A stretch of DNA of 64,000 nt from an uncultured Clostridia bacterium (GTDB taxonomy: Bacteria > Bacillota > Clostridia > TANB77 > CAG-508), in assembly GCA_934162205.1 (NCBI GenBank), contig CAKPIA010000006.1, positions 11,882-75,881 on the forward strand, given 5' to 3'. Made by a program: the position numbers and the translations under genes. Within the stretch, counting starts at the first letter, position 1; the number at the start of each line of letters is the position of its first letter. This document shows positions 8,477 to 64,000 of the stretch, piece after piece. The notes under the pieces were generated by a model. It had not been told where the DNA came from and ran no database searches. It saw only the letters and a list, made by a program, of their open reading frames with translations.

Positions 8477-8478
8477 TT

Positions 8479-9333
8479 ATGAATATAGATATTATATGCC
8501 CTTTGTATAATGCGGAAAAATACATACGAAATTTACACAAATCATTAGAAATGCAAAAGGGAGTAACAATAAATAAATATAGATATATTGTTACTAAAGG
8601 AACAGATAATACTGAACAAATATTAAAAGAGTTAAAAATAGATTATGAATTAATAAAACCAGAAGAATTTTCACATGCACTAACTAGGGAAAAAGAAGCT
8701 ATGAAAAGTAATGCAGATATACTAGTGTTTATAACTCAAGATATAATAATTAAAGATGAATATTGGTTATACAATTTAGTAAAAGATATAGAAAAAAATG
8801 AGTGTGAAGCATGCTACAGTAGACAAATATGTACTAATAACACAATAGAAAAATACACCAGAGAAAAAAATTATCCAGAAGAGTCATTTGTAGTAACGAA
8901 AAAAGACATAAATAAATTAGGATTAAGAACATTCTTTTTTTCTGATGCATCATCAGCAATTAAAAAGGATGTTTTTTTAGAACTTAAAGGTTATGATGGT
9001 AAAAAATTACCTATTAATGAAGATATGTATATAGCGTATAAGTTAATTATGAATAATTACAGAATTAAATATTGTGCAGAGTCTAAGGTTATTCATTCAC
9101 ATAGATTTACTTTAAAACAAATATATAAAAGATATTATGATACTGGTAAATTTTTTAAAGAAAATTTATATTTAGATAATTTTAAAACAAATAAAACAGG
9201 TGGAAATTTAGCATTATATATTTTAAAAAGAGCTATACAAGATAAAAATGTAAATGTTTTAATTAATTTTATTCCTAATATGTCTGCAAGATTTTTAGGG
9301 ATGAAGAAGGGAAAGTATGATGGAAGAAAATAA
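8479..9333 (+). CDS. glycosyltransferase (GT2-like)
   Basis: N-terminal IDIICPLYNAEKYI resembling the GT2 nucleotide-binding start. Position inside the polysaccharide operon. Confidence 0.6.
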   Translation: MNIDIICPLYNAEKYIRNLHKSLEMQKGVTINKYRYIVTKGTDNTEQILKELKIDYELIKPEEFSHALTREKEAMKSNADILVFITQDIIIKDEYWLYNLVKDIEKNECEACYSRQICTNNTIEKYTREKNYPEESFVVTKKDINKLGLRTFFFSDASSAIKKDVFLELKGYDGKKLPINEDMYIAYKLIMNNYRIKYCAESKVIHSHRFTLKQIYKRYYDTGKFFKENLYLDNFKTNKTGGNLALYILKRAIQDKNVNVLINFIPNMSARFLGMKKGKYDGRK

Positions 9334-10336
9334 TAAAATAGATTTTGTTGTTTTGTGGGTTGATAGTAATGACCCATTATGGCAAGAAGAAAAAAATAAG
9401 TATCAAGCAAAAAGTGATTCTGATAGTTCTAAATATAGATATAGAGATTGGGATTTATTACAATATTGGTTTAGAGGAGTAGAAAAATTTACTCCATGGG
9501 TTAATAAAGTTCATTTTGTAACTTATGGACATATTCCTAAATGGTTAAATTTAGATAATCCTAAATTAAATGTTGTAAGACACCAAGATTTTATACCAGA
9601 AAAATACTTACCAACTTTTAGTTCTCATTCTATTGAATGTAATATTCATAGAATTAAAGGATTATCTGAAAACTTTGTATATTTCAATGATGATTTTTAT
9701 ATTATTAAAGATACAAAGCCAAAACACTTTTTTAAAAATGGATTACCTTGTGAAACAATTGGATTAAATGTACATTGTCCAAAGAAAAATTTAATTGCAC
9801 AAAAAATATGTTTTAATGATACAAGTATTATAAATGAACATTTTGATTTTAAAAAATCATTTAGAGAGAATATTTTTAAATGGCTTAACTTTAAAAATGG
9901 TAATATAAATTTGAGAACATTAGTTTTGATGAATTGTCCCAGATTTCCAGGATTTTGGCAACAACATATAGCTGAACCATATAGTAAAGAAACATTTAAG
10001 GATGTATGGAATAATGAGTATGAAATTTTAGATGAGACTTGTACTCATAAATTTAGAGAGAGTTCAGATATTAATCAATGGTTGTTTAAAGAATGGCAAA
10101 TAGCAAGCGGAAAAATTGCTATTAGAAGTAAAAAGTTTGGAAAATCATATTTTATAGATAGAGATGGAATAAATAACATAAAAGAGGAGCTTTTAAATGC
10201 AATTCAAAAACAAAAATATAATATGATTGCAATAAATGATGGACCTATGAATGATAATGAATTTGAAAACTTATTAAAAGATTTAAAAGAATCATTTAAT
10301 AAGATATTACCTGAAAAATCAACATTTGAAAAATAA
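9317..10336 (+). CDS. Stealth-family capsular polysaccharide hexose-1-phosphoryltransferase
   Basis: Matches the Stealth conserved regions as I remember them: CR1 VVLWVDSNDPLW, CR2 YRYRDWDLLQYWFRGVEKFTPWVNKVHFVT, CR3 LPTFSSHSIECNIHRIKGLSENFVYFNDDF. Confidence 0.75.
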   Translation: MMEENNKIDFVVLWVDSNDPLWQEEKNKYQAKSDSDSSKYRYRDWDLLQYWFRGVEKFTPWVNKVHFVTYGHIPKWLNLDNPKLNVVRHQDFIPEKYLPTFSSHSIECNIHRIKGLSENFVYFNDDFYIIKDTKPKHFFKNGLPCETIGLNVHCPKKNLIAQKICFNDTSIINEHFDFKKSFRENIFKWLNFKNGNINLRTLVLMNCPRFPGFWQQHIAEPYSKETFKDVWNNEYEILDETCTHKFRESSDINQWLFKEWQIASGKIAIRSKKFGKSYFIDRDGINNIKEELLNAIQKQKYNMIAINDGPMNDNEFENLLKDLKESFNKILPEKSTFEK

Positions 10337-10360
10337 AAAAGAAGGGTAGCAATTATTAAG

Positions 10361-11545
10361 ATGTTTAAAAGTAATAATAAACTAATAAGTTTTATAATAT
10401 ATATTTTTCTGTTAATACCATTCTTTAGGATAACTTATCTTGTTGTTATGTATCCACAAACAGAATTAGTATATAAAATTTGGCAAATAATTTCAATATT
10501 AATAATTTTTGTAATATTAATGAAATATGGAAAATATTCTAAATTTCTTAATTATTTTATTGTGTATTTTATATTATTAATGTTGTCTACAGTTTTAAAT
10601 AATGCAGATGTTCCCGGATGTATTTTTTTGGCAATCAGAACAATTGGTTTATGCATGATTGTTGATTATGGTATAAAAAGAGATGCTAAAGTTTTTTTAA
10701 ATGCTTTTGAGTTTTTTTTATCTGTATTAGTGTATATTAATTTATTTAGTGTTATAATTTTTAAAGATGGTATGTATGTTAACAGTACTGTTGGTTATAC
10801 AGAAAACTGGATATTGGGATATAGAAATTTACATATATTATATATATTGCCAGCAATTTTAGTTAGTTTTATTAATTCGTACTATAAAGAAGGAAAATTA
10901 ACTATTAGAAATTACATTTTATTAATAGCATCATATTTATCAATTTATCTTGTGAAAAGTGGAACTTCTTTAATAGGCATGACAATCATAGTTGGGTTAT
11001 TAATTTTAAATAATATATTTAAAAAAATAAAACTTTTAAATATTAAAAACTATTTTTTAGCATATATAATATTATTTTTGGCAATTGTAATATTCAGGAT
11101 TCAAAATTTATTTGAATATATTATTGTTGATATTTTAAATAGAGATTTAACTTTAACAGGAAGAATATATATTTGGGATTATGTTATAGAGTTTATTAAA
11201 GAAAGACCAATATTAGGTTATGGTGTAGAGGATAGTATATTAAGATTAAATAAAACTAGTTTTATGGTTAGCACACATGCACATGATCAGATTCTAGAGA
11301 TAATATATAAATCGGGTATTGTTGGATCTAGCATTTATTTTATAATTCTAATAAAATCTATAATTGAACTTTATAAATACAAAGAAAGTAAAATAGCACA
11401 AATTCTATCAATAGTTATGTTTGCTTATTTGTTTATGATGTTAACAGAGTTCTTTTCTTTAGATTTAATTATGTTTTTATTTGTATTTTGTTTAGATATT
11501 AAATTTTTTGCAAAAGAAGGAGAAAATAATGAAACAATTAATTAG
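10361..11545 (+). CDS. wzy: O-antigen/capsule repeat-unit polymerase (Wzy-like polytopic membrane protein)
   Basis: About 10 predicted TM helices with a large loop near the C-terminus. Located between GT genes in the operon. No sequence signature beyond topology. Confidence 0.55.
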   Translation: MFKSNNKLISFIIYIFLLIPFFRITYLVVMYPQTELVYKIWQIISILIIFVILMKYGKYSKFLNYFIVYFILLMLSTVLNNADVPGCIFLAIRTIGLCMIVDYGIKRDAKVFLNAFEFFLSVLVYINLFSVIIFKDGMYVNSTVGYTENWILGYRNLHILYILPAILVSFINSYYKEGKLTIRNYILLIASYLSIYLVKSGTSLIGMTIIVGLLILNNIFKKIKLLNIKNYFLAYIILFLAIVIFRIQNLFEYIIVDILNRDLTLTGRIYIWDYVIEFIKERPILGYGVEDSILRLNKTSFMVSTHAHDQILEIIYKSGIVGSSIYFIILIKSIIELYKYKESKIAQILSIVMFAYLFMMLTEFFSLDLIMFLFVFCLDIKFFAKEGENNETIN

Positions 11546-12545
11546 TGTTATTGTTCCTGTATATAATTCAGAAAAGTATTTAAAGGAGTGTATTAATTCA
11601 ATATTATATCAAACATATGAAAATATAGAAATTATTATTATAAATGACGGATCAACAGATAACTCTTTATTAATAAGTCAAGAATTACAAAAAGAAGATA
11701 AACGAATTAAAATTATAAACCAAAAAAATAGTGGCGTTTCATATTCAAGAAATAAAGGTATACAAGAAGCAACAGGTGAATACATTATGTTCGTTGATAG
11801 TGATGACTTTATTGTACAAAATTATATTGAATTAATGTATAAAGAAATTACAAAAAATAATTATGATGTATGTATTTCTGGTATGACTTTTTGTGATAAA
11901 AACAGAAAGATAATAAAAAAAGAAATGTTTGTAAAAAATAATATAGAACTAAATTTTAAAGAGATTATTCCAAGTTTTGTAAACACTTTATATTTTTGTT
12001 CGTCTTGTAAAACTTTAATAAATAGAAAAAAGATTATAGAAAATTGTATAAAGTTTAAAGAAGATTTAAGTTTTGGAGAAGATTTAAGATTTTCATTTGA
12101 TGTAATTAGAAGTTGTAAAAGAATTGGATATCTAAGTGAATGTGGATATTTTTATAGACAAAATGGTGAAAGCATTACACATGAAAATGATATAGAAACT
12201 ATAAAAAAATATTTAAGAGATTCTTTAGAAGTTTATATGTACATAGAAAATTTTATAAATGAACCTATATTAATATCTAATAGGTTGTTTACAAAATTAA
12301 ATTATGCATTAAGAAAATTAACGATATTATCCAAAATAAATTATCAAAAATTTAAAGAATATTATAATTTGATTTTAGAAGAATTTGAAAAAAATGTAGA
12401 TTTTAGCAATATTAATTTAAAAAATATAGATTATGAAACAAATATAAATTCTCTTTTACTATATATGCTTAAAAATAAACAAATTCATTTATATTATTCT
12501 TTAAATGTACTATTAAATAAAATGAAAAGTATATTAAGAAAGTAG
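11529..12545 (+). CDS. family 2 glycosyltransferase
   Basis: ISVIVPVYNSEKYLKECINSILYQTYENIEIIIINDGSTDNS, classic GT2 N-terminus with DxD (FVDSDD). Start placed at the ATG 6 nt after AAGGAG. Confidence 0.85.
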   Translation: MKQLISVIVPVYNSEKYLKECINSILYQTYENIEIIIINDGSTDNSLLISQELQKEDKRIKIINQKNSGVSYSRNKGIQEATGEYIMFVDSDDFIVQNYIELMYKEITKNNYDVCISGMTFCDKNRKIIKKEMFVKNNIELNFKEIIPSFVNTLYFCSSCKTLINRKKIIENCIKFKEDLSFGEDLRFSFDVIRSCKRIGYLSECGYFYRQNGESITHENDIETIKKYLRDSLEVYMYIENFINEPILISNRLFTKLNYALRKLTILSKINYQKFKEYYNLILEEFEKNVDFSNINLKNIDYETNINSLLLYMLKNKQIHLYYSLNVLLNKMKSILRK

Positions 12546-12552
12546 AATTAAA

Positions 12553-14082
12553 ATGAGAAAAGAAAATTCAATAAAAAATATAGTAGCATCAGTAACATCG
12601 AATATTATTACAATTGGAATTGGAATTATAGCTCAAGCGATATTTATAAAAATATTAGGAAATGAACTTCTAGGAATAAATAGTTTATTTAATAATATTA
12701 TATCAATGTTATCAATAGTAGAACTAGGAATGGGAACAGCTATAATTTATAATTTATACAAACCTATAGCTGAAAACGAAACAGAAAAAGTTAAATCACT
12801 AATGAACTTTTATAAAAAAAGTTATAGAGTGATTGCTTTAATTGTGTGTTTTATTGGGGGATTAATAATTCCTTTTTTAAAATATATAATTGATATAAAT
12901 ACTATTAATGCGAACATAAACATATATATTATATATTTACTATTTTTAAGTGATTCTGTATTTTCTTATTTTTTATCTTATAAAAGAAGTATATTGTATG
13001 CAAATCAAAAAAATTATATAGTAAATATTATTCATATAATTTGTATTACTATATTAAATATTATTCAGATTATAATATTGTTTTTTACTAAAAATTTTTA
13101 TTTGTATTTAATGATAAAAGTTATAATGAAAATTATTGAAAATATGATTATAACTTTTGTAGCAAATAAACTATATTCTTTTTTAAATGAAAAAGATTAT
13201 GCAAAATTAGACAAGAGTGTGGAAAAAGATATTTTTACGAAAATTAAAGCATTATTTTTCCATAAAATAGGAACTTTTGTAATTCTTGGAACAGATAATA
13301 TTATAATTTCTAAGTTTCTAGGTATTGTAGTTGTGGGTATGTATTCGAATTATTATTTAATAATAAATTCTGTACAAACTGTCTTTAATCAAATTATTCA
13401 GGCATTAACTCCAAGTTTAGGAAATCTGTTAGTAACAGAATCAAAAGAAAAACAGTTTATTACGTATAAAAGAATTAGATTTATAAATTTTTGGATTACT
13501 GCGTTTTCTTCAATCGCAATATTAATTATAATGGAAAGCTTTATAAAAATATGGATTGGAAATAATTATATATTGCCTAGAACGGTATTATATATTCTTG
13601 TACTTAATTATTATTTAAATAGTTCAAGAGCAACCTATATAGCTTTTAAAGATGCTGCAGGTATATATTATGAGGATAGATTTATTCCACTATTTGAATC
13701 TTTAATTAATATTATAGTTTCTATATTGCTTGTGAAAAAATTAGGTCTTGTTGGAGTTTTTTTAGGAACTATTGTAAGTGGCTTAGTTTTATGGTGTTAT
13801 AGTTATCCGAAATATGTATATAAATTAATATTAAAAAGAAATTATTTTGATTATGCAAAGGAAAATATAGGATATTTAGTACTATTTATAATTACTGCAT
13901 TTATAACGGTTATGATTTCAAATAGTATACATGTACAATCAATAGCTTTTCAATTTTTTTATAATGTAATAATTGCATTGATTGTACCTAATTTAATTAT
14001 GTTATTATTCTTTATAAAAGATGAAAAACTAGTATATTTTTTTGATTTATTTAAAGAAATAAAAAATAAAATACAACATTAA
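12553..14082 (+). CDS. wzx: polysaccharide flippase (Wzx, MOP superfamily)
   Basis: 509 aa, 12-14 predicted TM helices, typical Wzx length and position. Confidence 0.7.
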   Translation: MRKENSIKNIVASVTSNIITIGIGIIAQAIFIKILGNELLGINSLFNNIISMLSIVELGMGTAIIYNLYKPIAENETEKVKSLMNFYKKSYRVIALIVCFIGGLIIPFLKYIIDINTINANINIYIIYLLFLSDSVFSYFLSYKRSILYANQKNYIVNIIHIICITILNIIQIIILFFTKNFYLYLMIKVIMKIIENMIITFVANKLYSFLNEKDYAKLDKSVEKDIFTKIKALFFHKIGTFVILGTDNIIISKFLGIVVVGMYSNYYLIINSVQTVFNQIIQALTPSLGNLLVTESKEKQFITYKRIRFINFWITAFSSIAILIIMESFIKIWIGNNYILPRTVLYILVLNYYLNSSRATYIAFKDAAGIYYEDRFIPLFESLINIIVSILLVKKLGLVGVFLGTIVSGLVLWCYSYPKYVYKLILKRNYFDYAKENIGYLVLFIITAFITVMISNSIHVQSIAFQFFYNVIIALIVPNLIMLLFFIKDEKLVYFFDLFKEIKNKIQH

Positions 14083-14168
14083 ATAAATAATTAATCATTG
14101 ACAATCTAAAATATTAATAGTAAATTAGTATTGTAGACAAAAGAAAATAAAAAAGGAGAAAAATATAA

Positions 14169-14858
14169 ATGGAGGAATTAGATTTTAAAGAGTTATTTAG
14201 TATATTTTGGAGTAAAAAAGTACAAATAATCTTAATTATTCTAATATTTGCTGTTTTAGGAGCAATTTATACTATGACACTTGTAAAACCTAAATACACA
14301 TCTTCTACAACTCTAGTATTAGTACAAGCTGAAAGTAATAAAGGAAACACTGTTACAACAGAATCAATAACAACAACAGATATAACATTAAATTCAAAGT
14401 TGGTATCTACATACAGTGAATTAATAAAAAGTAAAAATGTACTAAGACAAGTTATGTCTAATTTGAATTTAGATTTAAATGAAGAAGAAATAAAGAAAAA
14501 TATAAAGGTAAAATCAGTTTCTGATACTGCCTTAATAGAAATATCTGTTACTGATGAAAACCCTAAATATGCAGAAAAACTTACAAACGAAATTGCTAAT
14601 GTTTTTGTGCAAAAGGTTTCAGAAATTTATAATATTAATAACGTATATATAGTAGATAAGGCAGAATTTCCAACAGAGCCATCTAACATAAATCATTTAA
14701 AAGATATAATAATTTTTGCTTTTGCTGGAATATTCTTTGCTTTTGTATCTGTATTTATAATAAATTTATTAGATACTACTGTTAAAAATTCAGAAGATAT
14801 AGAAAAAAAATTAGGTATATCAGTTTTGGCGTCAATACCAAAGTATGATTCTAAATAA
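14169..14858 (+). CDS. capsular polysaccharide chain-length regulator / tyrosine-kinase modulator (CpsC/Wzz, PCP2b family)
   Basis: TM near the N-terminus, periplasmic-type domain, second TM at the C-terminus. Sits immediately upstream of the BY-kinase, the usual Firmicutes arrangement. Confidence 0.75.
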   Translation: MEELDFKELFSIFWSKKVQIILIILIFAVLGAIYTMTLVKPKYTSSTTLVLVQAESNKGNTVTTESITTTDITLNSKLVSTYSELIKSKNVLRQVMSNLNLDLNEEEIKKNIKVKSVSDTALIEISVTDENPKYAEKLTNEIANVFVQKVSEIYNINNVYIVDKAEFPTEPSNINHLKDIIIFAFAGIFFAFVSVFIINLLDTTVKNSEDIEKKLGISVLASIPKYDSK

Positions 14859-14871
14859 AGGAGATTTATAA

Positions 14872-16014
14872 ATGAGAAAAGAATTAATTACACATGAAGA
14901 CCCAAAATCACCTGTATCTGAAATGTTTAGAACATTAAGAACTAATATACAATTTATGAATACAGATGAAAGAATAGAAACAATATTAATAACAAGTACA
15001 TTACCAGGTGAAGGAAAAAGTTGGGTTTCATCAAATTTGGCAGTTACATTTGCACAAACAGGAAAAAAAGTAATTATTATAGATGCTGACATGAGAAAAG
15101 GAAGACAATATAATATATTTAAAGTTTCTCCAAGACCAGGATTGTCTAATTATTTGTCAGGTGTTGTAAATGGTGAAAAATTAAATGTTACTAAAGATTT
15201 AGAAATGTTTATTAAGAAAACTGATGTAGAAAACTTGTATGTTATGCCAGCTGGAAATGTTCCTCCAAATCCATCTGAATTATTAGTTTCAAAAAAAATG
15301 GAAAAATTATTAAAAGAATTAAAAGAGATGTTTGATGTTATAATATTTGATGGTACACCAAGCCTTTTAGTTGCAGATGCAATAATTTTATCCAGAATAG
15401 TAGATACAACTATAATTGTTACAGCATATAAAGAAACAAAGATGGATAATTTGGATAAAGTTAAAAAAACAATAGAAAATGTTGGAGGAAATATAGCAGG
15501 AGTTATATTAAATAAAATTCCAATATCAAACAAAAAATATGAAGATACATATTATTATGGTAATAGTTCTTCAAAATCTTTTGATATAAAGAATATAGAA
15601 AAACATCAAGAAAGACCTCATAAAACAAAGCAGAACAATATTAATAGTAATAAAATTGTAACAGATAAATTATTAGACAAAAAAGTTAATAAAAAAATAG
15701 AAAAAGATAATGAAGATATTGAAACTCAAGTTCAAACAGAAGAAATTAAAACAATTGAATATGAACCTATAAAAGAAATAAAAAAGACTAAAAAAGTAGA
15801 AAAAACAATAGAAAATACGGTTGAAAACTCAGTTAAAAATATTGAAGAACCTAAACCAATTAGTGCACCAAGAAAAAGAAATTCAATATTAAATGATATA
15901 GATAATGAAGATGAGGTTGGAATAAGAGTTACAGATGAAGAATTAGAATTAAAAGCTAAAAATAGATCAAGAGATATATTACAACAAATAAATAGATATA
16001 TGAAAGAAAAATAG
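14872..16014 (+). CDS. BY-family protein-tyrosine kinase (CpsD/CapB-like) with a ~150-aa K/E-rich C-terminal extension
   Basis: Walker A TSTLPGEGKSWVSSNLA. Walker B IIIDADMRKG. C-terminal Tyr cluster YEDTYYYG at about aa 222-229, followed by an unusual low-complexity extension. Confidence 0.85.
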   Translation: MRKELITHEDPKSPVSEMFRTLRTNIQFMNTDERIETILITSTLPGEGKSWVSSNLAVTFAQTGKKVIIIDADMRKGRQYNIFKVSPRPGLSNYLSGVVNGEKLNVTKDLEMFIKKTDVENLYVMPAGNVPPNPSELLVSKKMEKLLKELKEMFDVIIFDGTPSLLVADAIILSRIVDTTIIVTAYKETKMDNLDKVKKTIENVGGNIAGVILNKIPISNKKYEDTYYYGNSSSKSFDIKNIEKHQERPHKTKQNNINSNKIVTDKLLDKKVNKKIEKDNEDIETQVQTEEIKTIEYEPIKEIKKTKKVEKTIENTVENSVKNIEEPKPISAPRKRNSILNDIDNEDEVGIRVTDEELELKAKNRSRDILQQINRYMKEK

Positions 16015-16022
16015 GTGATTTA

Positions 16023-16784
16023 ATGATAGACATGCATTCACATATATTACCTAATATAGATGACGGCTCAAAGAATATTGAACAGTCTTTGCAATTACTT
16101 AAAGAAGCGTCTGATGCAGGATTTACAGATATTGTATCAACTAGTCATTATTTAGAAGGTTATTATGAAGAAGATGTAGAAAAAAGAAAAGAATTATTAA
16201 ATGTTTTAATTGATAGTTCAAATACAAATTTAAAATTACATTTAGGAAGTGAAATTTATATATCTGAAAAAATTATAGAATTAATAAGAGAAAATAAAGC
16301 TTCAACAATTAATAATTCAAGATATGTATTATTTGAACTTCCAATGAATAATAATGTGTTATATTTAAAAGATATTATTTTTACATTAATTGAAAATGAT
16401 TTTATTCCAATAATAGCACATCCAGAAAGGTATTCATTTGTACAAAAAAATCCTAGTATGTTAGTAGAACTAATTCAAATGGGAGTGCTTTTTCAATCAA
16501 ATTATGGTAGTATAGTAGGATATTATGGCAAAGATGCTGAAAAAACTGTAAAAATTTTATTGAAAAATAATTTAGTACATTTTTTAGGATCAGATGTACA
16601 TAGGCCAAATACAATTTATAAAATGATGCCTAATATATTAAAAAAATTAGAAAAATTAATAGGAAAAGAAAAGTTATACGAAATAAGTACTTATAATCCT
16701 AGTATGGTATTACAAGATTATAATATAGATGTTAATTACCCTCAAAATATTAAATTAAGTTTTTGGGATAAGATTATGAAATAA
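16023..16784 (+). CDS. PHP-family protein-tyrosine phosphatase (CpsB/YwqE-like)
   Basis: MIDMHSHILPNIDDG metal-binding start typical of the CpsB PHP phosphatases. 253 aa. Confidence 0.85.
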   Translation: MIDMHSHILPNIDDGSKNIEQSLQLLKEASDAGFTDIVSTSHYLEGYYEEDVEKRKELLNVLIDSSNTNLKLHLGSEIYISEKIIELIRENKASTINNSRYVLFELPMNNNVLYLKDIIFTLIENDFIPIIAHPERYSFVQKNPSMLVELIQMGVLFQSNYGSIVGYYGKDAEKTVKILLKNNLVHFLGSDVHRPNTIYKMMPNILKKLEKLIGKEKLYEISTYNPSMVLQDYNIDVNYPQNIKLSFWDKIMK

Positions 16785-16812: not shown

Positions 16813-18177
16813 ATGAGAAAATACTTTGGAACAGATGGTATAAGAAGAATTGCTAATACTGAACTTTCACCAGAATTAGTATATAAAGTAGCAAAGGCAG
16901 GTGCATATGTTTTATCTAAACATACAGATCATTCACCTACAATTTTAATAGGAAGAGATACAAGAATATCTGGAACACTAATAGAAAGTGCAATGGTTGC
17001 AGGATTTTTAAGTTATGGGGCAAATGTAAAATTACTTGGAGTTATACCTACACCAGCGGTAGCATATTTAACAAGAAAATTAAATGCAGATGCAAGTGTT
17101 GTTATTTCTGCATCACATAATACATATGAATTTAATGGTATAAAATATTTTAGTAATAAAGGTATGAAAATATCAGATGAGTTAGAAGAAGAAATAGAAG
17201 AAATAATGGAATCTGGAAAATTAGACGAGTTAACAGCTGTAAATGAAAAAATTGGAGTGTCTGAAGTTAGAACAGATTTATTAGATGAATATGTATATTT
17301 CTTTAGAAAAAATTTTGATGATGATATAGAAAAATATAATAATGATGATTTTGTTGTAGGTATTGATACTGCAAATGGTGCTACATACGAAGTTGCAGAA
17401 AAAGTATTCAAATGTCTTGGAATAAAATATAAAATAATAAATAATAATCCAGATGGAATAAATATTAATAAAGCTTGTGGATCAACACATTTAGAAAGTC
17501 TAAAACAATATGTTAAAGATAATAAGCTAAGTTTGGGAATTGCATATGATGGTGATGGAGATAGATGCCTAGCTGTTGATGAATTAGGAAATGAAATAGA
17601 TGGAGATAAAATATTAGCAATTATTTCAAATACTTTAAAAAAAGAGGGAAAATTAAATAAGAATATAATAGTAGCTACAGTTATGAGTAATCTTGGATTA
17701 AATAAATATTGTAATGAAAATAATATGAACTTAATTCAAACAAAAGTTGGAGATAGATATGTTTTAGAAGAAATGTTAAAAAATGGATACAATTTAGGTG
17801 GAGAACAATCTGGACACGTAATACTATTAGACTATAATCCAACAGGTGATGGCATATTAACATCTTTAATGATAATAAGTGCTATATTAAAAACAGGTAA
17901 AAAAGCCTCTGAATTAGGAAATTTAGTTAAACAATATCCACAAGTTTTGGTAAATGCAAAAGTAGATTCAAATAAAAAATATGATTATGATAAAGACATA
18001 GAAATAAAAACAGCTATAGAAAATTTAGAAAAAGAATTTGCTGGAAATGGAAGAGTATTAATAAGACCTTCTGGAACTGAACCATTAGTAAGAGTTATGA
18101 TTGAGGGAGAAGATCAAAAATATTTAGAGAAAAAAGCGAATGAAATTGCAAAATTAATTGAAGAAAAATTAAAATAA
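16813..18177 (+). CDS. glmM: phosphoglucosamine mutase
   Basis: Active-site serine loop ISASHNTYEFNGIKYF. Starts MRKYFGTDGIRR. 454 aa. Confidence 0.9.
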   Translation: MRKYFGTDGIRRIANTELSPELVYKVAKAGAYVLSKHTDHSPTILIGRDTRISGTLIESAMVAGFLSYGANVKLLGVIPTPAVAYLTRKLNADASVVISASHNTYEFNGIKYFSNKGMKISDELEEEIEEIMESGKLDELTAVNEKIGVSEVRTDLLDEYVYFFRKNFDDDIEKYNNDDFVVGIDTANGATYEVAEKVFKCLGIKYKIINNNPDGININKACGSTHLESLKQYVKDNKLSLGIAYDGDGDRCLAVDELGNEIDGDKILAIISNTLKKEGKLNKNIIVATVMSNLGLNKYCNENNMNLIQTKVGDRYVLEEMLKNGYNLGGEQSGHVILLDYNPTGDGILTSLMIISAILKTGKKASELGNLVKQYPQVLVNAKVDSNKKYDYDKDIEIKTAIENLEKEFAGNGRVLIRPSGTEPLVRVMIEGEDQKYLEKKANEIAKLIEEKLK

Positions 18178-18243
18178 TTATTGATTATTTTGTAAATAAG
18201 TGTAATAATATATGTATTAAAACAAAAGAAAAGGAGAATGAAA

Positions 18244-49659: not shown

Positions 49660-49674
49660 AAGAGGGTGAAATTT

Positions 49675-51336
49675 ATGACAGATATAGAGATTGCAAGAAA
49701 TACAAAATTAGATAATATAGTAGATGTTGCAAAAAATATAAATATAAATGAAGATGATTTAGAATTATATGGAAAATATAAAGCAAAAATATCAAATGAT
49801 TTATATAATAAAATTGAAAAAAATAAAAATGGTAAATTAGTATTAGTAACAGCAATTAGTCCAACACCATTAGGAGAAGGAAAGACAACAATATCAATTA
49901 GTATAGCAGATGGACTAAAAAAAATTGGGAAAAAATCAATATTAGCTTTAAGAGAGCCATCATTAGGACCTGTATTTGGAATTAAAGGTGGAGCAACAGG
50001 CGGAGGTAGAGCTCAAGTAGCACCTATGGAAGATATAAATTTACACTTTACAGGTGATATTCATGCAATAACATCTGCAAATAATTTATTATCTGCATTA
50101 ATAGATAATCATATATTTTCAGGAAATAGTTTAGAAATTGAAAAAGTTATTTGGAAAAGATGTGTTGACTTAAATGATAGACAATTAAGAAAAGTCCAAA
50201 CTGGTTTATCTGGCGAAAAAAATATGCAACCACGTGAAGATTCATTTGATATAACTGTTGCTTCAGAAATAATGGCTATTTTGTGTTTATCAAAAGATTT
50301 AATTGACTTAAAGAAAAGGGTTGGAAATATAGTTATAGGATATAACAAAAAAGGAGAACCTGTATATGCTAAAGATTTAAAGGCAGAAGGAAGTATTGCT
50401 GTCTTATTAAAAGATGCAATAAAACCAAATTTAGTACAAACCTTAGAACATACACCTTGTTTAATACATGGAGGACCTTTTGCAAACATTGCACATGGAT
50501 GTAATAGCATAATTGCGACTAAACTTGCTTTAAAATTAGCAGATTATGCAGTAACAGAAGCAGGATTCGGGGCTGATTTAGGTGCAGAAAAATTTTTAAA
50601 TATAAAATGTAGACAAGCAGAAATAAAACCTGATGTAGTTGTATGTGTTGCAACACTTAAAGCTCTTAAATATCATGGTGGAGTTGAAAAAGATAAAATT
50701 CAAGAAGAGAATATAGAAGCTCTTGAAAAAGGCATGAATAATTTATACAAACATATAGAAAACATAAAAGATAAATTTGGATTAAATGTTATAGTAGCAT
50801 TAAATAAATATAGTAAAGATAGTCAAAGAGAAATAGAATATTTAAAAAATAAATTAAATGAAAAACAAATAGAATTAAGTCTTGTAGAAGGTTGGGAAAA
50901 AGGCTCTGATGGAGCAATAGATATAGCAAATAAAATTGTTGAATTATCAGAGAAAGAAGAAAAATTTACATACACTTATGAATTACAAGATGATGTAAAA
51001 ACAAAAATAGAAAAAGTTACTTCTGAAATATATGGAGCCAAATCTGTTATATACGAAGATCAAGCTATAGAAAATATTGAAAAAATAGAAAAAATGGGAT
51101 ATGGAAATTTACCAATTTGTATAGCTAAAACACAATATTCTTTTTCTGATAATGCAAAAAATCTAGAATGTGATGATGATTTTAGTATAACAGTAAGAAA
51201 TGTAGAATTAAAATTAGGAGCAGGTTTTATAGTAATTTTAGCAGGTAAAATCATGACAATGCCAGGACTTCCTAAAGTGCCAGCAGCAGAAAATATAGAT
51301 ATAGATGATAATGGAAATATTATAGGAATTTTTTAA
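49675..51336 (+). CDS. fhs: formate--tetrahydrofolate ligase
   Basis: PTPLGEGKTTISI P-loop. About 554 aa. Start placed at the ATG 8 nt after AGAGGG (the ORF track began at a GTG inside the RBS). Confidence 0.93.
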   Translation: MTDIEIARNTKLDNIVDVAKNININEDDLELYGKYKAKISNDLYNKIEKNKNGKLVLVTAISPTPLGEGKTTISISIADGLKKIGKKSILALREPSLGPVFGIKGGATGGGRAQVAPMEDINLHFTGDIHAITSANNLLSALIDNHIFSGNSLEIEKVIWKRCVDLNDRQLRKVQTGLSGEKNMQPREDSFDITVASEIMAILCLSKDLIDLKKRVGNIVIGYNKKGEPVYAKDLKAEGSIAVLLKDAIKPNLVQTLEHTPCLIHGGPFANIAHGCNSIIATKLALKLADYAVTEAGFGADLGAEKFLNIKCRQAEIKPDVVVCVATLKALKYHGGVEKDKIQEENIEALEKGMNNLYKHIENIKDKFGLNVIVALNKYSKDSQREIEYLKNKLNEKQIELSLVEGWEKGSDGAIDIANKIVELSEKEEKFTYTYELQDDVKTKIEKVTSEIYGAKSVIYEDQAIENIEKIEKMGYGNLPICIAKTQYSFSDNAKNLECDDDFSITVRNVELKLGAGFIVILAGKIMTMPGLPKVPAAENIDIDDNGNIIGIF

Positions 51337-51422
51337 ATTAATAAAAAAAGTATTGTAAAATAAAAAAGTGTACAAAATAAATAAAGATAAAAACAAGGAA
51401 AAAATACAAAGGAGCAAAAAGT

Positions 51423-52883
51423 ATGAAAATAAAGCAAACTAAAGGTATTACATTAATAGCATTAGTAATAACAATTATAATATTATTAATACTAGCAGGA
51501 GTAACAATAACGATGTTGACAGGAGATAATGGAATACTAAAACAAGCAACAAATGCAAGAGAAACAAATAGTAAAGCAGAATTTGAAGAACAAGTAAAAT
51601 TAGCAGTAATAGCATCAAGAGTAAATGATACAGCAAGTATAGATTTAAAAGCATTAGATGAAGAATTAAATAAAATAAGTGGAACAATAATAACAAAATC
51701 AGCAGATAATAATTTACCATGGACAGTAAAAAAAGGAAGTTATGAAGTAACAATAACAGCAGATGGAACAATAACATCAAACACAACAGGAAAAGATGAA
51801 CCAGTTGTTGAATCAGAAGTTGTAAAACAAGCGAAATCAGCAATGCCAGAAGGAGCATCAATAGACGCAACTACAAATGAAAACACAGGAATAGTAATGA
51901 TAGATAGTAATCAAAATGAATGGGTATGGATAGAAGTACCACCAACAGTATTTACAACTGCAAAAAATAGTACAGATTATGATAATATAAAAGCAGATTT
52001 AATAGCATATGCAAGTGATTATAGGGAAAGTTATACAGATAAGTGGTATGCTATGGATGGAGAAACATTAGTAACAGCGAGTACAGAGGGATTAACAGAA
52101 GCACAAAAATTACTAAATAATGGATGTGGATTAACATATAATGAATATAATACAAATTATAATAAAATGTTAAGTAGCATATATAAAAATAAGGGATTTT
52201 ATATAGGGAGATATGAAGCTGGAATAGCAGGTAGTGATGAGAATACAAGCTTAGCAAGATATAGTAGAACAGAAATAACAAGCAACACACCAAAAGCTGT
52301 AAGCAGAAAAGATATGATACCATATAATTTTGTGACTTGTAGTGATGCACAACAATTAGCAAATGGAATGAGTACAGGAAATAAAACAAGTAGTTTAATG
52401 TATGGAATCCAATGGAATTTAGTATGTAAGTTTTTAGAAGTAAAAGGTAATTGGGATACAACTGAGAATACAGCACAATATTATATAAAACAAAATAGTA
52501 CAAGTTGGGGAAATTATGCTAATAGTAGTATAACATTATCAAGAGGAAAATATAATATAAATCCAAGTTTATCATCAAGCATATGGACACCATTTGGTAC
52601 AGATACATTAAATTATGTAACATCAAGTAAAACCAATAGCAGTACATCATACTACCAATTATTAACAACAGGAGCAAGTGAAGATACTAACAAAATGAAT
52701 ATATATGATTTTGCTGGAAATGAATATGAGTGGATATTAGAGACTACTGCCAACACCTACAATCCTTGTAACGTTAGGGGAGGTAGTTGCAACAACGGTG
52801 GCAACAATCCAGCTTCTTGTTGCAATGCCAGTAGGACGACTAACAGCAATTGCGTCATTGGACTACGTTCCTCACTTTATTAG
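51423..52883 (+). CDS. pilin-like N-terminus fused to an FGE/SUMF1-like domain, with Cys-rich C-terminal tail
   Basis: N-terminus MKIKQTKG/ITLIALVITIIILLILAGV resembles a class-III (prepilin) signal (G-hydrophobic-T-L-I-x-L), but with Ala where the conserved Glu5 would be. C-terminal half matches the FGE-sulfatase fold signatures (YGIQWNLVCKF; FAGNEYEWI; NVRGGSCNNGG; NCVIGLRSS). Tail has six Cys. Confidence 0.7.
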   Translation: MKIKQTKGITLIALVITIIILLILAGVTITMLTGDNGILKQATNARETNSKAEFEEQVKLAVIASRVNDTASIDLKALDEELNKISGTIITKSADNNLPWTVKKGSYEVTITADGTITSNTTGKDEPVVESEVVKQAKSAMPEGASIDATTNENTGIVMIDSNQNEWVWIEVPPTVFTTAKNSTDYDNIKADLIAYASDYRESYTDKWYAMDGETLVTASTEGLTEAQKLLNNGCGLTYNEYNTNYNKMLSSIYKNKGFYIGRYEAGIAGSDENTSLARYSRTEITSNTPKAVSRKDMIPYNFVTCSDAQQLANGMSTGNKTSSLMYGIQWNLVCKFLEVKGNWDTTENTAQYYIKQNSTSWGNYANSSITLSRGKYNINPSLSSSIWTPFGTDTLNYVTSSKTNSSTSYYQLLTTGASEDTNKMNIYDFAGNEYEWILETTANTYNPCNVRGGSCNNGGNNPASCCNASRTTNSNCVIGLRSSLY

Positions 52884-53041
52884 TAGAGTGGTACTCTAAA
52901 GCCGTGATTAGAGTATAGCAATAAAATAACTTTAAGTGGAAAAAAGAGATTGTATTTTATAGTGTATACATTTGAAAAATAATGTATACACTATTTTTAT
53001 ATCAATATAAATAGATCAAAAACATAGGAATTTTTTAAACA

Positions 53042-53070: not shown

Positions 53071-53146
53071 AAAAACTATAAAAAGTAAAAAAGCTAATCA
53101 AAAATTAGGTTAGCATACATTATGATTAAGACAGGAGGGAAAATTT

Positions 53147-53614
53147 ATGAAAACTTTAGCTTATGAAGTTGTTTTTCGGTTAGAAAATACAATACATGAA
53201 CAAATCATTAATAATGGATTTATAGTTGTTTACTTTAATGAAGAAGATAATTTTAAGTTTTTAGAAGGCTTACTAACAAATGATTATATGTATGGAAAGC
53301 TGGAAAATGATAAATGGATTCTTAATTTGTATTCTTCATATATTCTTCAGGAATTATATTCTAGAAATGATGCAATGAAATTAACTGAAGAATTAGTAAA
53401 TCAAATGGAAATTTCTTGGCAAGGAATTATGGGAATAGATGAGCTTGAATTTCCATTTGAGATTAATTTAGAATTGGAATATCCAATTAATAATGGTAAA
53501 GAACTTGTAAAGGAAAAAGTAAACATTGCTTGTGGGAGACCATTAAGTGATGTTGAAAAGTATAAAAGTCTTATTGAAGATTTTAAAAATAATAAAGTTT
53601 TTGTAAGTTTATAA
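53147..53614 (+). CDS. hypothetical cytoplasmic protein (155 aa), monocistronic
   Basis: AGGAGGG RBS. Has its own promoter-like element and a strong terminator. No recognised motifs. Confidence 0.55.
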   Translation: MKTLAYEVVFRLENTIHEQIINNGFIVVYFNEEDNFKFLEGLLTNDYMYGKLENDKWILNLYSSYILQELYSRNDAMKLTEELVNQMEISWQGIMGIDELEFPFEINLELEYPINNGKELVKEKVNIACGRPLSDVEKYKSLIEDFKNNKVFVSL

Positions 53615-53655: not shown

Positions 53656-53706
53656 TAAAATATATAAATAATATTAATAGATTTATTTAAGGAGTTGATT
53701 ATTTAT

Positions 53707-54630
53707 ATGTATAATTTTAGAACAGATTTAGCAACAGAAAGAAGAGATATATACAAAAAAGCAAATAGTATAGAAAATGATATAAATGGTATAGAAAGTA
53801 CAAAAGAAGAAATTAATGATAAAATCTCAGTAGAAAAAGTAAAAATATTAAATGAAGAAGGAGAAAAAGCAATAGGAAAACCTATTGGAAATTATATTAC
53901 AATAGATATTAAAAAATTAAAATTAGCACAAGAAGAGGATATACAAAATGCATCAGAGGTATTAACAAATGAATTAAAAAATATTTTAGATATGCATGTA
54001 CAAAAACAAGATGAGATTATAATAGTTGGATTAGGTAATATATATGTAACACCAGATAGTTTAGGTCCTAAGGTAATTAATGAAATAGATGTTACTCGTC
54101 ATTTAATAAAATATGTGCCAGATGTTGTAGAAAAAGATACAAGAAGTGTAAGTGCTGTTGCTCCTGGAGTTTTAGGAACAACAGGAATAGAAACAGTTGA
54201 AATTTTAAAGGGAATTATAGAAAATACTCATCCAAAATTAGTTGTAGTAATTGATGCATTAGCATCTAGAAGTATAGAAAGAATTAGTAGTACAATACAA
54301 ATTTCTGATACTGGAATAATTCCAGGTGGTGGCGTTGGAAATGCAAGAACAGAAATAAGTGAAAAAACTTTAGGAATTCCAGTAATAGCTTTAGGAATAC
54401 CAACAGTTGTAGAAACAGCGGTATTGGTAAATGATTCGTTAAATCTTTTTATAGATAAATTACAAAATGATGCCAAATCTAATTCATATTTAAATGAAAT
54501 AAAAGAAAAAGATAACTACGAAGAAATAAAAGATGCTTTAAATCCATCTGATTATAATATGATTGTTACTCCAAAAGAGATAGATGATTTAATAGAAAAT
54601 ATGAAAGATATAGTTGCAAGACGGCATTAA
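53707..54630 (+). CDS. gpr: germination protease (spore endopeptidase Gpr, MEROPS A25)
   Basis: IIVGLGNIYVTPDSLGPKV and ISDTGIIPGGGVGN match the remembered Bacillus Gpr (IVGLGNWNVTPDALGP; ISDTGIHPGSGVGN). Confidence 0.85.
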   Translation: MYNFRTDLATERRDIYKKANSIENDINGIESTKEEINDKISVEKVKILNEEGEKAIGKPIGNYITIDIKKLKLAQEEDIQNASEVLTNELKNILDMHVQKQDEIIIVGLGNIYVTPDSLGPKVINEIDVTRHLIKYVPDVVEKDTRSVSAVAPGVLGTTGIETVEILKGIIENTHPKLVVVIDALASRSIERISSTIQISDTGIIPGGGVGNARTEISEKTLGIPVIALGIPTVVETAVLVNDSLNLFIDKLQNDAKSNSYLNEIKEKDNYEEIKDALNPSDYNMIVTPKEIDDLIENMKDIVARRH

Positions 54631-55619: not shown

Positions 55620-57956
55620 ATGAAAGATTTAAAAGATATGTCTATTGGTGAAGTTTTAGAAAAAATAGGAATATTTGCAAGCAATATTGATTTTCAAATT
55701 TTTATTAAAGATGAACAATTAATTGAGGAAATTAATAATCTTTTTTCTCAAAAAAGACATACTACTAAAATGGATTATATTACTAATTTTATAAAAGAAA
55801 ATGAAAAAAATATAGATATTGAAAAATTTGTTTTGACACAGCTATATAGAATGGAAACAGTAAAAAGAGAAATGAAAAAAGAAAATAAAAGATTTGAGAT
55901 AAAACAAGTTGGAGAAAAGGTTTCTGTTCCTGAAGAAAGTATAGAAAGAAAGATGAATATAGCAAAAGAACTTTTAAAAAACTATAAAGGTAGTATATTA
56001 ATCTTAGATGAAAACAATAAAGAACAAATTGTAAATATGGATATTTTGAATAATGGAAAAACTTCTCAAAAAAATACTCATAAATTACAAAAACTTGATG
56101 AAAATGAAAGTTTAGATTTGATTTGTTCAACTTTAAGTTGGGAAGATATTCCAGATTTGGTTTCATCAAATGATCCTAATTTTTCAGAATATTTAATAGA
56201 CTATACTGTACAAAATACTGTTAATAATACTTTACCTACATATTATAATTGTAGTGAACAAGAAATAGAAAAGCATATGCAAACACCAGAGTACAGAAAA
56301 GAATTTTATAAGCGATTAAAAGAAACATTTAAAGAATATTCAAAGTTTATACAGGTTGATAAAATGATGGCTATAGGAATTTATAGAAACTTAAAGTATT
56401 TAGATGTTAAAGAGATTGAAGGAAATATGTGCAAATTAATTATAGAACAATTAAAAGAAATTTATAATCAAATTGATCCAAAAACAAAAACATCAAAAAG
56501 TAAGTTTAAAATTTTAGAAGATACAGATAGCCAAGAAAAAATAAGTATTTTTCCAAAAGAGTTAAAGAAAATGTTAGATGAAAACTTTATAGATAATAAG
56601 TTTATAGGGAAAAATACAATAAAAGCTATGAAAAGAGAAATATTGGAATATGAGGTTCCATTAACAGAATATGATCCAATAGTACTAAAACTATTAGAAA
56701 TTAATATGGATGAATTAATGCAAATATTAAATAATCCATCAAACTTTGAGTATTTAATGCAATATGAAATGATAAATGATGAGGTACTAGAATATGTATT
56801 AAATACAAAAAATGATATGCCAGTAAAGATATATGAGCAATTATTAAATGGTGGAATGATTGATAAACAATATATATTAGACTTATATTCAGATGGTATT
56901 ATTACTTTAGAACAAATAAAAGAGTTAAATGAATTTTCTGAATTACATATAGAAGAAATTGTTCAAGAAGAAGAAATGATAAGATTATATAAAGAATTTT
57001 ATATGTACGGAAAAGATGAAGAAACATTTAATAGTTATATGCAATTATATAAAGAATTAAGAGTTAAAGGTAAGGATATATCAGAAAAAAGAGAAAATGG
57101 AAATAGATTGGTTGAAGAACTTGGAGAAGATTTTGAAGAAGAGGATTTAAAACAAATGTATAAATTAGGAATTATTCCGGTTGATACTGCAATAGAGTGG
57201 GGAGGAGATTCAATAACTCAAGATATGTTTAACAAAGGAATATTAAAACCTATAGATGCTAAAAGATTATATAAAGAAAATGTTTTAAATTTAGATATGA
57301 TAAAACAAGTATTAAGATCAAAAGAAATATCAGATGAAGATAAATTAGCTTTAATTGGAAGTACTTTTGATGATGAACAAGATTTTGAAATGAAAATGGA
57401 ATTAATGCAATATTTAAATTTAGTTACAGACGAAAATAGTTCAAATAGTAAAGGCCAAAAACGTTTAAAAAGAAATAACAATTCTATAATAGATGTTAAA
57501 AATGCATATATTACAGATCCATTTGCAAGATGGCAATTAATATCTTTATTAGATAATGAATATTCACAAGAAGTTTTAAGAGATGGATATATTATATTTG
57601 AATTACCAAATATAAATGATGGTACTGTAATAATAGAAAAGATGTTTAAAAAATCTCAAAATAGAGTTGTTCCTTCTTATGGAAATGCTACATATATATT
57701 ATCTAAAAAACAATTTGATAAATCAAAAAATTATATAACTGATGAAACCTTAGGTGGTAAAGTTATAAATTTAGGAGAATTAGCAGAAGTAAGAGAAGCT
57801 AGAAATGCTGATAGATTGAATCATTCTAGTAGATGGGGAAGTAATATAAAGGATTATTTTGAAGTTGGAAAAGACCAAAGTAGATATACTGAAGAGCAAA
57901 TACAAAAAATAGATAAAACAATAGAAAGTATAGAAAATTCTAGAAGATTAAAATAG
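55620..57956 (+). CDS. hypothetical large acidic protein (778 aa), first gene of a two-gene operon
   Basis: GGAG RBS. No TM segment, no P-loop, no nuclease or peptidase motif that I can recognise. E/K-rich with helical character. Confidence 0.7.
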   Translation: MKDLKDMSIGEVLEKIGIFASNIDFQIFIKDEQLIEEINNLFSQKRHTTKMDYITNFIKENEKNIDIEKFVLTQLYRMETVKREMKKENKRFEIKQVGEKVSVPEESIERKMNIAKELLKNYKGSILILDENNKEQIVNMDILNNGKTSQKNTHKLQKLDENESLDLICSTLSWEDIPDLVSSNDPNFSEYLIDYTVQNTVNNTLPTYYNCSEQEIEKHMQTPEYRKEFYKRLKETFKEYSKFIQVDKMMAIGIYRNLKYLDVKEIEGNMCKLIIEQLKEIYNQIDPKTKTSKSKFKILEDTDSQEKISIFPKELKKMLDENFIDNKFIGKNTIKAMKREILEYEVPLTEYDPIVLKLLEINMDELMQILNNPSNFEYLMQYEMINDEVLEYVLNTKNDMPVKIYEQLLNGGMIDKQYILDLYSDGIITLEQIKELNEFSELHIEEIVQEEEMIRLYKEFYMYGKDEETFNSYMQLYKELRVKGKDISEKRENGNRLVEELGEDFEEEDLKQMYKLGIIPVDTAIEWGGDSITQDMFNKGILKPIDAKRLYKENVLNLDMIKQVLRSKEISDEDKLALIGSTFDDEQDFEMKMELMQYLNLVTDENSSNSKGQKRLKRNNNSIIDVKNAYITDPFARWQLISLLDNEYSQEVLRDGYIIFELPNINDGTVIIEKMFKKSQNRVVPSYGNATYILSKKQFDKSKNYITDETLGGKVINLGELAEVREARNADRLNHSSRWGSNIKDYFEVGKDQSRYTEEQIQKIDKTIESIENSRRLK

Positions 57957-63489: not shown

Positions 63490-64000
63490 TTATAAATTTG
63501 ATAATGGATTACTTTCAACAGCATTTCTAACTTGTTCATTATTTACATGGGTATATATTTCTGTTGTAGAAATACTTTCATGTCCGAGTAATTCTTGTAA
63601 AGCTCTTATATCAACATTACCATACTGATACATAAGAGTGGCTGCTGTATGTCTTAATTTATGTACAGAATATCTTTGGCTATCAAGTCCAGCTTCTTGT
63701 AACTCTTTATATATAATGTGCTGAACAGTTCTATTGCTAATACGTTCTTTTCTTTCACTTAAGAATAAAGCTTTATCAGAATTTTTAGAATCTTTTTTTG
63801 CATTTTTAGGTCTAACTTGTAAATAATTGTTTATTGCTCTCATACAAGCACTATTTAAATAAATTGTTCTTTCTTTGTTCCCTTTACCAATAACAGTCAT
63901 CTTACATTCACTAAAATCAATATTATTTACATTGATTCCAACAAGTTCAGATAAACGTATACCGCAATTTAAGAAAAGAGTTGTAATTGCATAATCTCTC
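63490..64000 (-). CDS. tyrosine site-specific recombinase, XerD/XerC-like (N-terminus lies beyond the window end)
   Basis: RDYAITTLFLNCGIRLSELVGINVNNIDF...VIGKGNKERTIYLN, HKLRHTAATLMYQ and LLGHESISTTEIYTHV catalytic R-H-R-Y region. The reading frame stays open to the window edge. Confidence 0.8.
   Translation of the reverse strand, partial: RDYAITTLFLNCGIRLSELVGINVNNIDFSECKMTVIGKGNKERTIYLNSACMRAINNYLQVRPKNAKKDSKNSDKALFLSERKERISNRTVQHIIYKELQEAGLDSQRYSVHKLRHTAATLMYQYGNVDIRALQELLGHESISTTEIYTHVNNEQVRNAVESNPLSNL

Follow-up and report, generated by a model that had tools for sequence, protein, structure and literature searches.

A pilin-like protein with a probable retroelement-type variable lectin head in an uncultured Clostridia bacterium

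The question raised by this locus is what kind of protein is encoded at positions 51423-52883 (+ strand) of a 64,000-nucleotide stretch of DNA from an uncultured Clostridia bacterium (this whole stretch is called the window below). The open reading frame (ORF) and its ATG start are real, and the product of 486 residues begins like a type IV prepilin, continues with motifs resembling those of the formylglycine-generating enzyme (FGE) and ends in a tail described as cysteine-rich. The initial annotation, made from the sequence alone, read it either as an orphan pseudopilin carrying an FGE-like ligand-binding or enzymatic head, or as a membrane-anchored FGE-like protein whose leader merely mimics that of a pilin. 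Its two structural guesses stand; what it did not recognise is that the head is very probably that of a variable protein of a diversity-generating retroelement (DGR), belonging to the C-type lectin (CLec)/FGE type, and that the tail is the variable region. We are confident that the gene encodes such a DGR-type variable lectin protein and not an enzyme. The combined two-module explanation, in which the pilin step is the inferred part, is considered probable, and the balance tilts only gently towards true incorporation into a filament. The gene is divided as follows:

51423..52883, + strand: whole gene, modular pilin-like / DGR-type variable protein of 486 residues (ORF call, homologs and AlphaFold2 model)
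51423..51785, + strand: pilin-like module, residues 1-121, with a long alpha1 helix and a small four-stranded sheet
51786..51812, + strand: flexible linker, residues 122-130 (predicted local distance difference test score, pLDDT, below 50 at residues 122-125; length variable among homologs)
51813..52880, + strand: ligand-binding domain (binding predicted) of the CLec fold, FGE subtype, residues ~131-486

In this explanation the product would be a two-module cell-surface protein: module 1 (residues 1-121) would be a type-IV-pilin-like element inserted in the membrane, and module 2 (residues ~131-486) a ligand-binding head of the CLec fold, FGE subtype, without enzymatic function, whose last ~45 residues would form the binding surface and be written by a DGR.

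Searches of Pfam, NCBIfam and the PDB with the single sequence gave sub-threshold hints, and family profiles were needed. A Pfam scan called neither of the domains expected by the initial annotation on this protein (FGE-sulfatase, PF03781, gave no match at E<=10), and the best single-sequence PDB matches were a geopilin for the pilin half (E=0.87) and PvdO for the head (E=1.3). Among 60 relatives, the prepilin motif N_methyl (PF07963) was matched at E<0.01 in 17 and PF03781 weakly in 23; a search of PHROGs gave nothing useful. When a profile of residues 1-124 was compared with the PDB, it matched exclusively type IV pilins, namely PilE1 of Streptococcus sanguinis (E=1.4e-3 over positions 15-102), geopilins, MshA and PilA, and for the head a profile search retrieved pFGE/SUMF2 (1y4j, E=0.006) over the stretch IYDxAGN…RGG…GFR. 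The structure was predicted with AlphaFold2 (AF2) using a 60-sequence alignment, and the resulting model is confident (mean pLDDT 93.2, predicted template modelling score 0.79). It contains an extended alpha1 helix packed on an antiparallel beta-sheet, as in pilins, followed by an FGE-sulfatase fold, that is a CLec fold carrying a variable region near its C-terminus. Pilins are the top structural matches of the N-terminal module, and the structures nearest to the head are non-enzymatic DGR variable proteins. The four FGE-like motifs YGIQWNLVCKF, FAGNEYEWI, RGGS and IGLRSS are present as annotated, three of the four align to 1y4j in the profile search, and together with the N-terminal motif they are far above chance level. 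Both guesses of the initial annotation, pilin-like and FGE-like, were right at the level of the fold.

The evidence that the head belongs to the DGR class comes from its C-terminal end, where two elements were delimited:

52743..52876, + strand: DGR-type variable region, residues 441-485, including the 'cysteine-rich tail' 456-477 (codon bias, homology to proven variable regions)
52872..52913, + strand: 3' junction CACTTTAT and downstream tract (…CTAAAGCCGTGATTAG), with the hairpin TAGAGT-GGT-ACTCTA (sequence conserved in active targets and in orphan copies)

Among homologs 63-85% identical, the last ~45 residues are hypervariable, except for a framework that does not vary (PC…RGG…G…PAS.R…T…G[LF]R.SLY). 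The codons of this segment (52743-52871) differ from those of the rest of the gene: the GC content is 48% against 29%, codons ending in C (NNC) make up 40% against 3%, codons ending in C or T (NNY) 84% against 33%, and asparagine is written AAC in 6 of 10 cases against 4 of 39. The same signature was found over 41 family genes, where the variable columns change at codon positions 1 and 2 while the third base is a pyrimidine, C or T, in 80-95% of sequences (C alone in 30-59%), against 0-10% NNC in the flanking conserved columns. The residues K, E, Q, W and M are unreachable through AAY to NNY changes; their share is 20% in the body of the window protein and 4.9% in the variable segments of the family.

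Two relatives of the gene stand beside DGR cassettes. At locus L012, the order is a target gene with the same pilin-like N-terminus, an ORF with MutS domain I, the accessory gene bAvd (70 bits, cutoff 40), a reverse transcriptase (RVT_1, 51 bits, with IGxxxSQ…YLDD) and a repeat, 140 nt long, of the target's 3' end. When the variable region was compared with this template repeat, 17 of 18 mismatches were located at template adenines (p=8e-7). When metagenomes were searched for the pattern of the framework written entirely with AAY codons, a second cassette was found on two independent contigs (L038 and L039), with the gene order of L012 and scores of 65 bits for RVT_1, 63 for bAvd and 38 for MutS_I; in L038, 24 of 25 mismatches between variable region and template are at adenines (p=5e-10). 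Both templates translate to asparagine-rich peptides (…NPCANRGGNYNN.GS.NPASNRNNN.TTNSNNNI…) which align position for position with the tail of the window protein. The variable region of the window gene ends in CACTTTAT, and at the same point both template repeats have CACTCTAA; the window copy also retains the downstream tract of ~35 nt common to active targets. This boundary and tract (52872..52913) are a candidate for an IMH-type 3' boundary with a downstream cis element, and no Rfam match was obtained for them. A conserved hairpin on the 3' side of the variable region was considered and found unsupported, the folding of TAGAGT-GGT-ACTCTA being significant in the window copy alone (z=-2.8) and not robustly conserved.

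By the mechanism proposed, an error-prone reverse transcriptase would copy the AAY-rich template repeat and randomise its adenines, so that at each asparagine codon any of the NNY codons (for Cys, Tyr, Ser, Gly, Asp and others) could arise, and the resulting complementary DNA would replace the variable region; an origin of the window segment by such mutagenic retrohoming is what its codons point to. Since the templates align position for position with the window tail, its cysteines are read as AAY-derived TGY codons, and the 'cysteine-rich tail' as a set of these among other NNY codons. The initial annotation had counted six cysteines in it, while the segment quoted, CNNGGNNPASCCNASRTTNSNC (residues 456-477), has four, or five when C449 is added. 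C449 is the only cysteine of the tail that is conserved in family alignments, and cysteine richness is not a property of the family.

Several observations were made on the cassettes themselves. The ORF between target and bAvd consists of MutS domain I only in both of them (L012 11559-11807, 31 bits; L038 702-1151, 38 bits; cutoff 20.6), and a MutS-like accessory gene is described for some DGR classes. The L012 reverse transcriptase (12169-12954) has 261 residues against 340 in L038 and apparently is without ~80 residues after YLDD; for this reason the L012 cassette may be inactive, in spite of differences between its variable region and template that still lie almost exclusively at adenines. 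The possibility that the L012 template serves other paralogs of its metagenome-assembled genome (MAG) in trans was rejected, these showing 12-31 non-adenine mismatches to it. In this MAG (CAKPOI), a stretch of ~90 nt (…AAGCCGTGATTATAAAATAGGCGAGAGAGCCATTTTATAGCCGGTAAAT…CCCTCTAGCGA) lying downstream of the variable region is conserved between the cassette-linked target of L012 and orphan paralogs, which suggests an origin of the orphans in duplications that included the target and some of the intergenic region of the cassette. This conserved stretch is located as follows:

L011, 11380-11470: ~90-nt stretch downstream of the variable region
L012, 11290-11380: the same stretch beside the cassette-linked target
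L018, 11476-11560: the same stretch

The other half of the question concerns the N-terminal module, of which two parts were annotated:

51423..51446, + strand: basic leader MKIKQTKG ending in Gly, with the putative prepilin-peptidase site G8|I9 (sequence and family conservation; cleavage inferred)
51447..51521, + strand: hydrophobic alpha1-N segment ITLIALVITIIILLILAGVTITMLT with Ala at +5 (AF2 helix 7-33; sub-threshold N_methyl)

The N-terminus MKIKQTKG|ITLIALVITIIILLILAGV, with Ala at position +5 of the putative mature protein, has the layout of a class III signal (MKIKQTKG|ITLIALVITIIILLILAGVTI, leader and hydrophobic stretch), and this layout is conserved family-wide. As the initial annotation stated, it is a prepilin-type N-terminus with Ala at +5, and it proved near-invariant: the motif KGITLIALVITIIvLLILAG[VI]…LTG[ED]NGIL is almost unchanged across members that are otherwise highly diverse, and position +5 is occupied by Ala in 82, Ser in 9, Val in 2 and Glu in none of 93 representatives. 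The same Ala+5 N-terminus was also observed on ORFs with other C-terminal parts (L001 7719-8489, 256 residues; L023 9902-10192, - strand, 96 residues; L023 10460-11059, 199 residues), and the signal is thus not confined to the lectin family. A sortase gene (9182-9832) is situated at ~700 bp from the ORF of L001.

A link with a filament system is provided by locus L017, from a mouse-gut MAG, where the distance between a family member and a type IV pilus operon is ~4 kb. This operon contains a PilN-domain protein, two membrane ORFs, a pilin of 72 residues, a prepilin-peptidase-like ORF, two more pilin-like ORFs and a PilB-type ATPase (T2SSE 64 bits; TIGR02538 E=3e-30; gene cut by the end of the locus). 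The 72-residue pilin begins with the same Ala+5 N-terminus and scores 22.6 bits for N_methyl, above the cutoff of 21.2. Over its full length it shares 74-75% identity with the N-termini of family members at two other loci, L015, which is of the same MAG, and L009. The prepilin-peptidase-like ORF (17440-18237) matches A24_N_bact with 106 bits. The pilin-like ORFs neighbouring the peptidase have Ala, Asp and Ser at +5. In the explanation preferred here, the leader of the window protein would be processed at G8|I9, and a type-IV-filament system of this lineage would carry the protein or display it at its tip; even the short pilin of that system has Ala and not Glu at +5.

The strongest rival explanation concerns this step, and holds that the protein is a signal-anchored surface receptor, that is an uncleaved type II membrane anchor and a stalk under a DGR-type lectin head, with no filament. 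It is considered unlikely, and several results weigh for it and against the pilin step. Glu+5, the most conserved residue of pilins, is absent here and throughout the family. N_methyl reaches 13.3 bits on this protein for a Pfam cutoff of 21.2, and many relatives have the alpha1 helix without the beta-sheet module. Giant relatives carry tandem heads without a pilin-like N-terminus. No pilus gene or pilus-machinery motif was detected by motif scan in the window, nor a second pilin-like N-terminus elsewhere in it, and pilus genes were noticed beside only one of ~40 family loci (L017). In the peptidase-like ORF of L017 the catalytic A24 domain was undetected by Pfam (E<=0.1), NCBIfam gave no match, and no GxGD motif was noticed on reading. 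Against the anchor, the motif of leader, Gly and hydrophobic stretch is kept far more strictly than a generic anchor requires, the module folds as a pilin and has pilins as its top structural matches, and the short pilin of the L017 operon shares this N-terminus at the identity given above. A pilin-like module presented on a filament stays the slightly favoured reading. The description of the gene as an orphan applies to this locus, which has no pilus gene and no DGR cassette nearby, and does not extend to the family, which has the operon of L017 and the cassettes of L012 and L038.

The second rival accepts the lectin head and disputes its history: the tail would be hypervariable through ordinary diversifying selection or recombination between paralogs, DGRs having never acted on the copy of this lineage. 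What can be said for it, and against a DGR acting at this locus, comes from the window copy itself. No reverse transcriptase motif and no template-like copy of the variable region were found in the 64 kb, and no reverse transcriptase (RVT_1) is annotated within 10 kb past either window end in sister strains. Compared with the L038 template, the variable region of the window has 20 mismatches at adenine sites, 25 others and a gap of one codon; compared with that of L012 it has 24 non-A mismatches, and the other paralogs of the L012 MAG diverge from that template as reported above. A template for the clade of the window was looked for by pattern search in viral contigs, where nothing was found, and the L038/L039 cassette of the metagenome scan does not fit. 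Five syntenic copies from other samples, located through the neighbouring gene of 155 residues, show 0 mismatches over 52743-52883 (six identical copies with the window), and a 95%-identical homolog has a nearly identical variable region, with no sign of current diversification.

The codon signature is what ordinary selection accounts for badly. Point mutation in a genome with 25% GC would not give 40% NNC, 84% NNY, asparagine as AAC and 48% GC; the near-exclusion of K, E, Q, W and M confined to the tail segment is left without explanation; the homology of the segment with proven variable regions and with templates holds at each position; and a junction of the variable-region type and the conserved downstream tract are retained. 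This second rival is consequently considered improbable. What was rejected is that the window gene is a currently diversifying target, because of the lack of template and reverse transcriptase in the window, the lack of reverse transcriptase in the flanks and the identity of six samples. The window gene is concluded to be an orphan, fixed member of a DGR-generated repertoire. It would be one of several paralogs and, since no cassette is nearby and the sequence is fixed in the sampled population, would act as a stable adhesin or receptor of a single specificity; a remote template may be present elsewhere in the genome of this organism.

The pattern of divergence between homologs is all-or-none. 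In pairs with body identity of at least 95% the tails are identical (88 pairs), whereas below about 93% body identity the tail identity drops abruptly to 41-49%, and some pairs at 94% body identity already have 41% in the tail. Such a pattern would fit rare wholesale rewriting of the variable region followed by long stasis. In the five other samples (L047-L051), contigs begin inside the gene, with 96-402 C-terminal residues retained, and at their 5' ends L047 and L048 depart sharply from the window sequence, possibly through an indel or a chimeric join; assembly appears to break on paralog repeats at this gene.

The two weakest rivals are both considered highly improbable. The first takes the protein for an FGE/SUMF-like enzyme anchored in the membrane, or else for one that acts in redox reactions or binds metal through its cysteines, with the cysteine-rich tail as active or metal-binding site. 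The catalytic, copper-binding cysteine pair of FGE (Cys336 and Cys341 in the human protein) lies between the RGGS and GFR motifs; the segment at this position is precisely the hypervariable one, without any conserved cysteine column, C449 being upstream of it, so the protein is not an FGE-type enzyme and the enzymatic head allowed by the initial annotation is abandoned. A cysteine pattern conserved across paralogs was looked for and not found, the cysteines are TGY among NNY codons as mutagenesis of AAY predicts, and the closest structures are, as said, those of non-enzymatic variable proteins. In the second, a prophage or phage receptor-binding protein is supposed, DGR targets being often tail-fibre proteins; the gene is alone between fhs and gpr with its own terminator, its paralogs lie amid housekeeping genes, and a set of 2.9 million viral contigs gave merely 3 distant matches (24-27% identity).

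The family to which the gene belongs is very large, abundant in human and animal gut metagenomes, and invisible to Pfam. More than 6,900 homologs were found in a database clustered at 90%, and 20,632 clusters at 50% identity match with E<=1e-3 (378 with E<=1e-30), part of which may match through the N-terminal helix or an FGE-like motif only. None of the 120 best matches has a precomputed Pfam domain, and no names for the family proteins were found in public sources. All genome matches are MAGs (uncultured Clostridia, 'Clostridium sp.', and Bacilli for one locus), from the guts of human, mouse, rabbit, sheep and chicken. Paralogs are numerous: at least 4 in the MAG CAKPAX, and at least 9 family genes over 6 loci in CAKPOI. 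Some are in tandem (three in a row at L011), most copies are solitary among unrelated housekeeping genes, and contigs frequently break inside family genes. The giant relatives P0121 (5,309 residues), P0133 (6,477 residues), P0125, P0124 and P0123 have up to ten tandem lectin heads, and each head copy has its own distinct segment resembling a variable region (RGG…G[FY]R..LY), followed by a linker. These segments are internal, so that their individual retargeting by a DGR is unlikely.

DGR variable proteins of the FGE-type lectin fold and modular type IV pilins are each well known; the window locus is an ordinary fixed paralog, and the family-level picture is the interesting part. TvpA of Treponema denticola (2y3c) and TaqVP of Thermus aquaticus (5vf4) have the same head and are FGE-type CLec variable proteins of DGRs. 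TvpA is a lipoprotein. Compared with both, the present family has a pilin-like N-terminal module and large paralog sets mostly without cassette, and the window copy has no nearby template or reverse transcriptase and an invariant variable region. FGE and pFGE/SUMF2 (1y1e, 1y4j) share the fold subtype, and their (Y/F)D(L/F)xGN(V)xEW, RGGS and GFR motifs align; the differences are that a catalytic cysteine pair is not conserved here, that the corresponding segment is hypervariable and that PF03781 is not significant.

On the pilin side, PilB (with a von Willebrand factor A module) and PilC (with a lectin module) of Streptococcus sanguinis are modular type IV pilins and proposed tip-exposed adhesins (PMC8179133). 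The window protein resembles them in the arrangement of a small pilin module, a short linker and a bulky ligand-binding module. It differs in that theirs have a canonical class III signal, lie in pil operons and undergo demonstrated processing by PilD, whereas the present gene is solitary and its product has Ala at +5, a head of the DGR-type CLec kind and putative processing. GspK of type II secretion (3ci0_K) is a tip pseudopilin likewise without Glu+5, with the difference that the extra domain of GspK is an insertion in the pilin sheet and shows no variability, and that GspK belongs to a gsp operon of diderm bacteria. A pilin described in TANB77 is encoded in a Tad-type cluster with short pilins (PMC11680825), which are of a different family from the present one.

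The nearest parallel for a DGR-diversified filament is given by the type V pili of Bacteroides, of which the adhesins are diversified by DGRs (bioRxiv 10.1101/2024.11.15.621889). These are likewise gut bacteria with a DGR-diversified adhesive component of a pilus-type structure; the pilus class is one assembled by strand exchange and the phylum is another, and the words 'type IV', 'Firmicutes' and 'Clostridia' have zero occurrences in the text of that preprint. No paper linking DGRs with type IV pilins was found in the literature searched; the sole trace of such a link is a survey (PMC11661182) in which a 'GspG-type pilin' domain is mentioned among rare DGR targets. A literature search for the N-terminal motif as a sequence string gave no match.

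A broader scheme can be offered tentatively, as one that is possible and rather doubtful: a type-IV-filament system of uncultured low-GC gut Clostridia, with pilins lacking Glu+5, would show a repertoire of modular tip pilins with DGR-written lectin heads, in which one cassette-linked copy is rewritten at times and successful variants are duplicated and kept as fixed orphan paralogs, like the window gene. Under this scheme a pilus would bear a library of binding specificities kept in store. If filament presentation is true, gut Clostridia would have retroelement-diversified pilus adhesins, in parallel with the type V case of Bacteroides. That Glu+5 is consistently lacking, even in the short pilin of the L017 operon, bears on the assembly of type IV filaments. 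For annotation, a practical rule can be proposed: when an 'FGE-like' domain of an AT-rich genome has a C-terminal tail rich in GC and in NNY codons, it should be taken to carry a DGR variable region, whether active or fossil, and not to be an enzyme.

The gene is located, as the initial annotation stated, between fhs and gpr, with no pilus genes nearby. Its left neighbour is fhs (formate-tetrahydrofolate ligase, 49666-51336), and on the right the ORF of 155 residues is followed by gpr (germination protease, 53695-54630; Peptidase_A25 in syntenic loci). The window has a GC content of ~25%, with nearly every gene on the + strand. Two flanking signals were annotated:

51332..51361, + strand: weak sigma-70-like promoter candidate (9 of 12 consensus matches; positional inference)
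52959..53004, + strand: intrinsic terminator-like hairpin (52959-52994) and T-run (14-pair stem, then TTTTTAT)

The consensus scan for promoters gave overall no excess over shuffled expectation. The terminator-like site is the only one in the region of the gene and closes a monocistronic unit. Immediately upstream of the 155-residue ORF (53080-53149, + strand), a weak Rfam match to Clostridium-PBP RNA was obtained (27 bits for a gathering threshold of 94, E=0.14), which is most likely due to chance.

Three further regions of the window were recorded. A tyrosine recombinase (63490-63900, - strand) crosses the window end and belongs to the Phage_integrase family in the syntenic locus L040; in sister strains it is followed by housekeeping-type genes, with no obvious prophage. 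An ORF of 778 residues (55620-57956, + strand), with no Pfam family on record, is kept in the sister strains L040 and L047-L049. A surface-polysaccharide cluster (7784-16784) includes a sugar transferase, glycosyltransferases, a Stealth-family protein, and Wzy-like, chain-length and tyrosine-kinase-like ORFs, and the lowest GC content of the window (20-21%) is found inside this cluster, especially at 10000-14000.

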